Of a stretch of 64,000 nt of DNA, positions 22,287-23,113 are shown in pieces (the stretch's first letter is position 1; the number at the start of each line of letters is the position of its first letter). This DNA is from Escherichia coli (lineage in GTDB: Bacteria > Pseudomonadota > Gammaproteobacteria > Enterobacterales > Enterobacteriaceae): the NCBI RefSeq assembly GCF_001677475.2, contig NZ_CP015229.1; one strand, 5' to 3'. A program made the translations under genes and the position numbers. The notes under the pieces were generated by a model. That model was given only the letters and a program-made list of their open reading frames with translations, did no database searches and was not told where the DNA came from.

Positions 22287-23113
22287 GAAGAGTCTTCTGG
22301 CTGGTCGCTGCCGCTCTGTTACTGGCAGGGTGTGCAGGCGAAAAAGGCATTGTCGAGAAAGAGGGATATCAGCTTGATACCCGACGCCAGGCGCAGGCGG
22401 CGTATCCGCGCATTAAAGTGCTGGTGATCCACTACACCGCAGATGATTTTGATAGCTCGCTGGCGACACTGACCGATAAGCAGGTCAGTTCGCATTATCT
22501 GGTCCCTGCGGTGCCACCGCGATACAACGGTAAACCGCGCATCTGGCAACTGGTGCCGGAACAAGAACTGGCCTGGCATGCGGGGATTAGCGCCTGGCGC
22601 GGGGCAACGCGTCTTAACGACACCTCTATTGGCATTGAGCTGGAAAACCGTGGCTGGCAAAAATCATCCGGAGTGAAATATTTTGCCCCGTTTGAACCGG
22701 CACAGATTCAGGCGCTTATTCCACTGGCGAAAGATATTATTGCCCGTTATCACATCAAGCCGGAAAACGTAGTGGCACATGCGGATATCGCCCCGCAGCG
22801 CAAAGACGATCCGGGGCCATTATTTCCCTGGCAGCAACTGGCGCAGCAGGGGATTGGTGCCTGGCCGGATGCGCAGCGGGTGAACTTTTACCTTGCCGGG
22901 CGCGCGCCGCACACACCGGTAGATACCGCGTCATTGCTGGAGCTTTTGGCGCGCTACGGTTATGACGTTAAACCTGATATGACACCGCGCGAGCAGCGGC
23001 GCGTGATTATGGCGTTCCAGATGCATTTCCGCCCGACGTTATACAACGGCGAAGCGGATGCAGAAACTCAGGCGATTGCCGAAGCGTTGCTGGAGAAATA
23101 CGGTCAGGATTAG
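22283..23113 (+). CDS. amiD: N-acetylmuramoyl-L-alanine amidase lipoprotein AmiD (YbjR)
   Basis: 276-aa ORF with lipobox LLLAGCAG; amidase_2 type; start overlaps the ybjQ stop. Confidence 0.88.

Follow-up and report, generated by a model that had tools for sequence, protein, structure and literature searches.

Two convergent gene pairs meet at shared stop codons

The window analysed here, a 64,000-nt stretch of Escherichia coli DNA (contig NZ_CP015229.1) that is 96-98% identical to K-12 MG1655, contains two pairs of genes that converge on a common four-letter sequence. In the first pair, amiD (22283..23113, plus strand) encodes an N-acetylmuramoyl-L-alanine amidase lipoprotein, as given by the open reading frame list and the PGAP and MG1655 annotations, with a Pfam Amidase_2 match (E=4e-30). 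It reads ...CAG GAT TAG at its end, with the stop codon at 23111-23113. The opposing ybjS (23110..24123, minus strand) encodes a member of the NAD-dependent epimerase/dehydratase family, whose Pfam matches are Epimerase (E=5e-30) and 3Beta_HSD. Its coding sequence closes with ...CCG CGC TAA, the stop being the complement of 23110-23112. Both stops draw on the tetramer TTAG (23110..23113), of which the central TA is shared, and the same letters are found in MG1655.

In the second pair, the plus-strand gene ybjD (33752..35410) encodes a class 1 OLD-family ATPase/Toprim nuclease (Pfam DUF2813 and OLD-like TOPRIM; PMC13261556) and terminates in ...GCG GAT TAA, so that the protein ends in Arg-Ala-Asp and the stop occupies 35408-35410. 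It faces ybjX (35407..36399, minus strand), a gene of the DUF535/VirK family (Pfam DUF535, E=2e-102) whose start is placed at 36399 by the MG1655 annotation and at 36363 by PGAP. The ybjX end is ...CGC GGT TAA, with the stop as the complement of 35407-35409, and the tetramer common to the two stops is TTAA (35407..35410). The first-pass annotation had reported 4-bp overlaps of the stop codons at these two junctions, and this is what the sequence holds.

All four products have full-length Pfam matches (4/4), and their ends are shared with relatives. We sampled the region in 80 Enterobacteriaceae species, one genome per species, taking 10 kb on either side of an Hcp anchor that lies midway between the two junctions; the four genes were found by tblastn and each was extended in frame to its stop codon. 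Orthologue alignments extend to residue 275-276 of 276 in AmiD, 335-337 of 337 in YbjS, 552 of 552 in YbjD and 311-318 of 318 in YbjX, that is, to within the last 0-7 residues of the C-terminus, with the exception of one locus (L017) for YbjD and for YbjS, which is disrupted there. Within the species, both 4-nt overlaps are present in the PGAP annotation of the closest complete E. coli genome and in the coordinates of MG1655 (amiD 904913-905743 / ybjS 905740-906753; ybjD 916473-918131 / ybjX 918128-919120). The amiD-ybjS region has 95-99% identity in 5,422 of 5,426 complete E. coli genomes. Searches with 60-mers, run at megablast word size and therefore informative about the junction regions rather than about each base of the tetramer, recovered the first junction with both of its genes in 5368 of the 5426 genomes and the second in 4359.

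Long overlaps are commonly misannotated (PMC2478687), and a wrong frame, a wrong stop or an open reading frame that is not a gene would each produce a spurious junction. The stop codons, however, are fixed by the reading frame. We rejected such an artefact, which we regard as hardly conceivable, on the agreement of the four Pfam matches, of orthologues that align up to their final residues across dozens of genera and of the curated MG1655 ends, which are the same. The possibility raised in the first-pass annotation, that corrected stops might abolish the overlaps, is answered by the same agreement. All four genes are genuine, and their stops are the true protein ends.

Several features of the surrounding DNA were observed alongside. 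Relative to MG1655, the window carries an insertion of ~2.5 kb between ybjP and ybjQ (19354-21901), which looks horizontally acquired; it contains an AT-rich open reading frame of 600 aa (19950-21752, plus strand), the PGAP counterpart of which in the closest E. coli is a pentapeptide-repeat protein pseudogene. The genes ybjQ (21963-22286) and amiD (from 22283) are co-directional and overlap by 4 nt, stop on start, at 22283-22286, the usual arrangement for translational coupling; macA/macB and potH/potI have a like co-directional overlap in annotated relatives. The closest E. coli has PTS IIC/IIB and sulfatase genes, absent from MG1655, between rlmC and artJ (positions 5278-8456 of its locus, L001), and by collinearity the window probably carries them too, in the region 6000-9500.

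The overlaps belong to a known class

Both junctions belong to the YTAR "stop-on-stop" class, which is the minimum overlap possible for convergent genes; no overlap of one to three bases is possible between a stop codon and a reverse-complemented stop. Lillo and Krakauer (2007; PMC2174442) described the tetramers of convergent 4-bp overlaps as CTAA, TTAA, CTAG and TTAG and found 4 bp to be the modal length. Their 58 genomes contained 1890 convergent overlaps, 1218 of them at least 5 nt long, which by subtraction from their tables leaves 672 (36%) of exactly 4 nt; E. coli contributed 58 convergent overlaps. The anatomy is the same in the two junctions described here, where a central TA is shared by tail-to-tail stops, and there is no structural difference from the published class. 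What the present analysis contributes to it is the cross-genus history of two particular junctions.

From the published counts we estimate ~20 four-nt junctions per E. coli genome, or ~0.3 per 64 kb. By the same reckoning, which is our own and not a published value, a single window would contain at least two with a probability of ~3%. Their co-occurrence is a mild coincidence and carries no signal. Across 69 kb of MG1655 (880-949 kb), the spacings of the 11 convergent junctions are -4, -4, 0, 19, 29, 34, 40, 46, 72, 198 and 343 nt (negative values denote overlaps). One convergent pair with a 0-nt gap, ycaM (plus strand) and ycaN (minus strand) at MG1655 948659/948660, apparently lies just past the end of the window; this pair also appears in the published excludon table discussed below.

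The two junctions differ in conservation

A ybjX-family gene converges on ybjD at 54 junctions in our sample, including those of the window and the closest E. coli, and 50 of them overlap by exactly 4 nt. All four permitted tetramers occur among these 50 (TTAA in 21, TTAG in 22, CTAA in 4 and CTAG in 3). The genera represented include Citrobacter, Salmonella, Kluyvera, Leclercia, Enterobacter, Lelliottia and Silvania, and further Kosakonia, Trabulsiella, Pluralibacter, Franconibacter, Phytobacter and Dryocola. The other spacings are found in three Buttiauxella (+3, +13 and +13) and in strain LSJC7 (+25). In five Kluyvera loci, the ybjX-family gene is duplicated in tandem 3' of ybjD, and several apparent gaps of ~1,130 nt between ybjD and ybjX in this genus correspond to that duplication. 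The copy proximal to ybjD, which is the more divergent (318 aa), still overlaps the ybjD stop by 4 nt.

The amiD/ybjS spacing covers a wider range. The 4-nt overlap occurs in Citrobacter, Salmonella, Klebsiella and one Pluralibacter; gaps of 0-7 nt were found in 15 of 55 species (Kluyvera +3, Raoultella +7, Lelliottia 0, Buttiauxella 0 and others), and gaps of at least 22 nt in 22 of 55, some with REP-like inserts. Kosakonia, Phytobacter and their relatives (seven loci) have an extra gene of ~190-200 codons between amiD and ybjS, which are therefore not neighbours in this group. The extra gene is co-directional with amiD, has a signal-peptide-like N-terminus and ends ~5 nt from the ybjS stop. 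Conservation of the overlaps, which the first-pass annotation had named as a check, thus holds for ybjD/ybjX, with the 4-nt overlap in 48 of 52 other species, and is much weaker for amiD/ybjS, with 18 of 55.

How fused stops may arise and persist

The comparison across species suggests a simple route to such junctions. The reverse complement of TAA or TAG begins with TTA or CTA, and a gene that ends in N-N-Y TAR thereby presents a stop to the opposite strand in one reading frame, one base to the left. Loss of the spacer between two tail-to-tail genes would then fuse their stops into TTAA, TTAG, CTAA or CTAG and leave both proteins intact. After fusion, the central TA serves both stops, and the outer positions are limited to toggles between T and C and between A and G. 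Such a toggle exchanges TAA and TAG in one stop and, in every case that we inspected, is synonymous in the last sense codon of the partner. Other mutations mostly extend one or both proteins, and the fused state is hard to leave.

Present-day junctions illustrate both directions of this route. The amiD/ybjS junction of Kluyvera reads CAG GGC TAA GCC CTA GCG CGG (+3), and that of Citrobacter sp. FP75 reads CAG GGC TAG CGC GG (-4; CAGGGCTAGCGCGG). The two differ by 7 nt, and the protein ends, AmiD ...QG* and YbjS ...PR*, are identical. In Citrobacter sp. Cu233, the junction contains a REP-like insert of ~105 nt flanked by duplicated TTAACG, so that each gene retains a stop; this is a natural example of a 4-nt overlap undone, the reverse of the route above.

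At the other junction, YbjD ends in Arg-Ala-Asp (GAY) followed by TAR in every species examined, and with GAY-TAR the opposite strand always reads TAR one base to the left. The YTAR end of ybjD is kept in 15 of 16 loci that have no ybjX, which indicates that the minus-strand stop is a by-product of the terminus of ybjD itself. After the conserved IASKKRAEYRRRY motif, the tail of YbjX is variable in sequence and, through in-frame changes, in length, yet it ends on the same stop. We infer that this lock-in suffices for the long persistence of the ybjD/ybjX overlap, with added selection also possible. The near-universal 4-nt overlap could also mean selection for overlapping transcription; this comparison does not separate mutational lock-in from function.

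Run-on transcripts and Rho-dependent termination

Since no intergenic DNA separates the genes of either pair, each mRNA must extend into the coding strand of its partner. The first-pass annotation had stated that neither pair leaves room between its genes for a terminator. This was borne out at both junctions, but a terminator may still lie inside the coding sequence of the partner. Lacking an intergenic terminator, RNA polymerase would continue into the partner gene and produce antisense RNA. The corresponding claim of read-through and of mutually antisense 3' ends is logically sound, supported by a published excludon map and by published antisense Rho regions, and itself already in the literature.

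The map is that of ExcludonFinder (NAR 2025; PMC12288877), which counts 165 convergent excludons in E. coli MG1655, pairs with overlapping 3' transcription, and names amiD-ybjS and ybjD-ybjX among them in its Table 1. A pair qualified when its transcripts overlapped in 50% or more of the 58 RNA-seq sets, and where coding sequences themselves overlap, transcript overlap is unavoidable, so that a call by coverage is nearly automatic and uninformative. The Rho regions come from DirectRNA-seq in the presence and absence of bicyclomycin (Adams et al. 2021; PMC7815308, Supplementary file 2), with Rho calls made in 800-nt windows, a width at which read-through from a convergent gene is indistinguishable from transcription that starts at an independent antisense promoter. 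We took the distances below from MG1655 annotation coordinates and obtained positions in the window by mapping MG1655 onto it.

Three of the four gene ends are followed by a Rho region inside the partner (PMC7815308). For amiD, the read-through zone antisense to ybjS covers 23114..23488 (plus strand) up to a Rho peak at MG1655 906118 (score 4.27, p=4.9e-6), 375 nt past the amiD stop. The zone of ybjS, antisense to amiD, covers 22459..23109 (minus strand), with the peak at MG1655 905089 (score 3.90, p=2.6e-10), 651 nt past the stop. The zone of ybjX covers the 3' third of ybjD in antisense at 34525..35406 (minus strand); its peak at MG1655 917246 (score 15.9, p=6.9e-53) is 882 nt past the ybjX stop, and there 299 reads upstream compare with 18 downstream in the absence of bicyclomycin. 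These data support the conclusion that the amiD, ybjS and ybjX transcripts continue for hundreds of nucleotides inside the partner gene before Rho stops them. The pattern is like the Rho-suppressed antisense and read-through transcription described by Adams et al., with three of four flanks showing a bicyclomycin-sensitive region in antisense orientation. The fourth flank, that of ybjD, departs from it: no Rho region is reported, and a hairpin followed by six U residues lies inside ybjX instead.

Location of the Rho regions hundreds of nucleotides inside the partner is consistent with Rho loading on RNA that is untranslated past the stop. For amiD, ybjS and ybjX, the published data fit a sequence of events in which the ribosome would leave at the stop codon, exposing naked RNA on which Rho would terminate transcription a few hundred nucleotides further on. 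In the stretch 200-500 nt beyond the ybjX stop, C exceeds G by 8 to 13 per 100 nt; the excess is modest in the ybjS read-through and about 0 in that of amiD, which is weakly suggestive of rut sites 3' of the stops. The 120 nt past the stop do not fold beyond shuffled sequences for amiD (z=+0.4), ybjS (z=-0.2) or ybjX (z=-1.4). No mapped 3' ends were found within ~150 nt of either junction in the Term-seq tables of Adams et al., and no Rfam families in 21500-37500. Simple promoter and terminator scans near both junctions gave counts within or slightly above those of shuffles.

A further published Rho region lies antisense to ybjT at ~25466 of the window (plus strand; MG1655 908096, score 9.0), which implies that plus-strand antisense transcription continues or restarts past ybjS.

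A candidate terminator of ybjD inside ybjX

The last ~25 codons of ybjX contain a candidate intrinsic terminator of ybjD (35432..35487, plus strand), consisting of a hairpin at 35432-35481 and a T6 run at 35482-35487. The hairpin is a 16-bp interrupted stem with a dG of -26.1 kcal/mol, located about 25-80 nt past the ybjD stop, and the U6 follows it directly, beginning 72 nt after the stop. The fold of the 120 nt 3' of the ybjD stop has z=-2.4 relative to shuffles. Among all T-runs of the window, taken from both strands and scored alike (594 sites), the candidate ranked 2nd; recognisable intergenic terminators score about -19. The simple terminator scan had picked up just the inner 5 bp of this hairpin. 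The sequence is unchanged in MG1655.

The structure could also be a by-product of coding. On the ybjX strand, its T-run corresponds to the Lys-Lys codons in the conserved YbjX motif mentioned above. In 35 of 54 loci, the conserved T-run follows a hairpin with a dG of -15 kcal/mol or lower, compared with 16% of background sites, but the pairing partner differs between genera; together, a T-run forced by the Lys-Lys codons and a partner that varies by genus leave room for such an origin. The curated tables of PMC7815308 contain no Term-seq 3' end at MG1655 9180xx-9182xx, and Supplementary file 2 of the same study reports no Rho region 3' of ybjD. As ybjD is weakly expressed, the missing 3' end is not decisive. 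Judged from its sequence, the element has about an even chance of being an embedded intrinsic terminator, in which case ybjD transcripts would end ~75 nt downstream of the gene, within ybjX codons. Such elements have precedent, as a Rho-independent terminator embedded in the partner was noted for 23 of the 116 E. coli genes that overlap convergently (PMC2174442). The ybjD candidate shares with these the stem-loop and U-tract inside an opposing coding sequence. It is the only new item of this analysis.

Alternative explanations

The overlaps might instead be selected regulatory devices, convergent excludons in which antisense RNA represses the partner through polymerase collision or RNase III and makes expression of the two genes mutually exclusive; PhoP-induced ybjX silencing the OLD nuclease gene ybjD would be an example. 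Both pairs appear in the RNA-seq list of excludons (PMC12288877), and excludon pairs in general were found there to have higher synteny, but for overlapping coding sequences the label follows from coverage almost automatically. A functional excludon combines reciprocal expression with RNase III processing, whereas these two pairs were classed by transcript overlap alone, and a search of the literature for evidence of interference, reciprocal expression or RNase III processing found none for either pair. At ybjD/ybjX, the ybjX read-through covers ~880 nt of ybjD in antisense, reads fall from 299 to 18 across the Rho site, and the 4-nt overlap persists in nearly all species sampled and even in the proximal ybjX copy of Kluyvera. 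Against this stands the finding that ybjD retains its YTAR end in loci without ybjX. The amiD/ybjS spacing, for its part, is freely variable: besides the overlap there are gaps of 0-7 nt, REP inserts and, in certain genera, an additional gene. Nothing known connects the partners functionally, and the study that identified YbjD treats ybjX as its unrelated convergent neighbour (PMC13261556). We consider selected regulation unlikely for the overlaps. Its most specific form, in which ybjD/ybjX is a conserved one-directional module whose PhoP-induced ybjX silences ybjD through ~880 nt of antisense RNA over the Toprim-encoding 3' third, and the hairpin with its U6 stops ybjD RNA after ~75 nt, appears slightly less likely still.

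Head-on collision of RNA polymerases, rather than Rho or intrinsic signals, has been proposed to end transcription at hundreds of convergent E. coli pairs, with bidirectional terminators that are neither intrinsic-like nor Rho-dependent (bioRxiv 10.1101/2022.10.23.513370), and a GC hairpin (GCGCG-ACCG-CGCGC) does follow the ybjX stop directly. That model, however, depends on a defined intergenic hairpin and suits pairs with high expression best, whereas neither junction has any intergenic element. Furthermore, the mapped termination is bicyclomycin-sensitive, hence Rho-dependent, and occurs hundreds of nucleotides inside the partner, and the U-tract of the hairpin at 35432-35481 is one-sided. 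Collision as the main cause of termination is accordingly very improbable here. A bidirectional terminator of the SEnd-seq class was also considered and rejected: there is no DNA between the genes to hold one, the amiD/ybjS junction shows no significant structure on either strand (z=+0.4 and -0.2) and the ybjD U-tract is found on one side.

Discussion

With high confidence, we regard both junctions as ordinary stop-on-stop overlaps in which the overlap is unlikely to have a function and the run-on transcripts would be ended by Rho or, for ybjD, by the hairpin inside ybjX. That the overlap itself is without function is the most likely reading of the cross-species comparison. The overlaps, their class and their overlapping transcription are real but ordinary, and all three were already known: the standard annotation includes the overlaps, descriptions of the class go back to the 2000s, and overlapping transcription is on record for each pair. 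Their significance is small, and the outcome is essentially negative, as the finding needs no pursuit as a discovery.

Two points bear on the biology of these genes. The history of the amiD/ybjS junction illustrates how the loss of a 7-nt spacer would fuse two stops with neither protein touched, and why the fused state lasts. YbjD was recently identified as a class 1 OLD protein with anti-phage activity (PMC13261556, 2026); its gene is covered by a long antisense RNA that comes from ybjX and is ended by Rho, and may have a terminator of its own inside ybjX.
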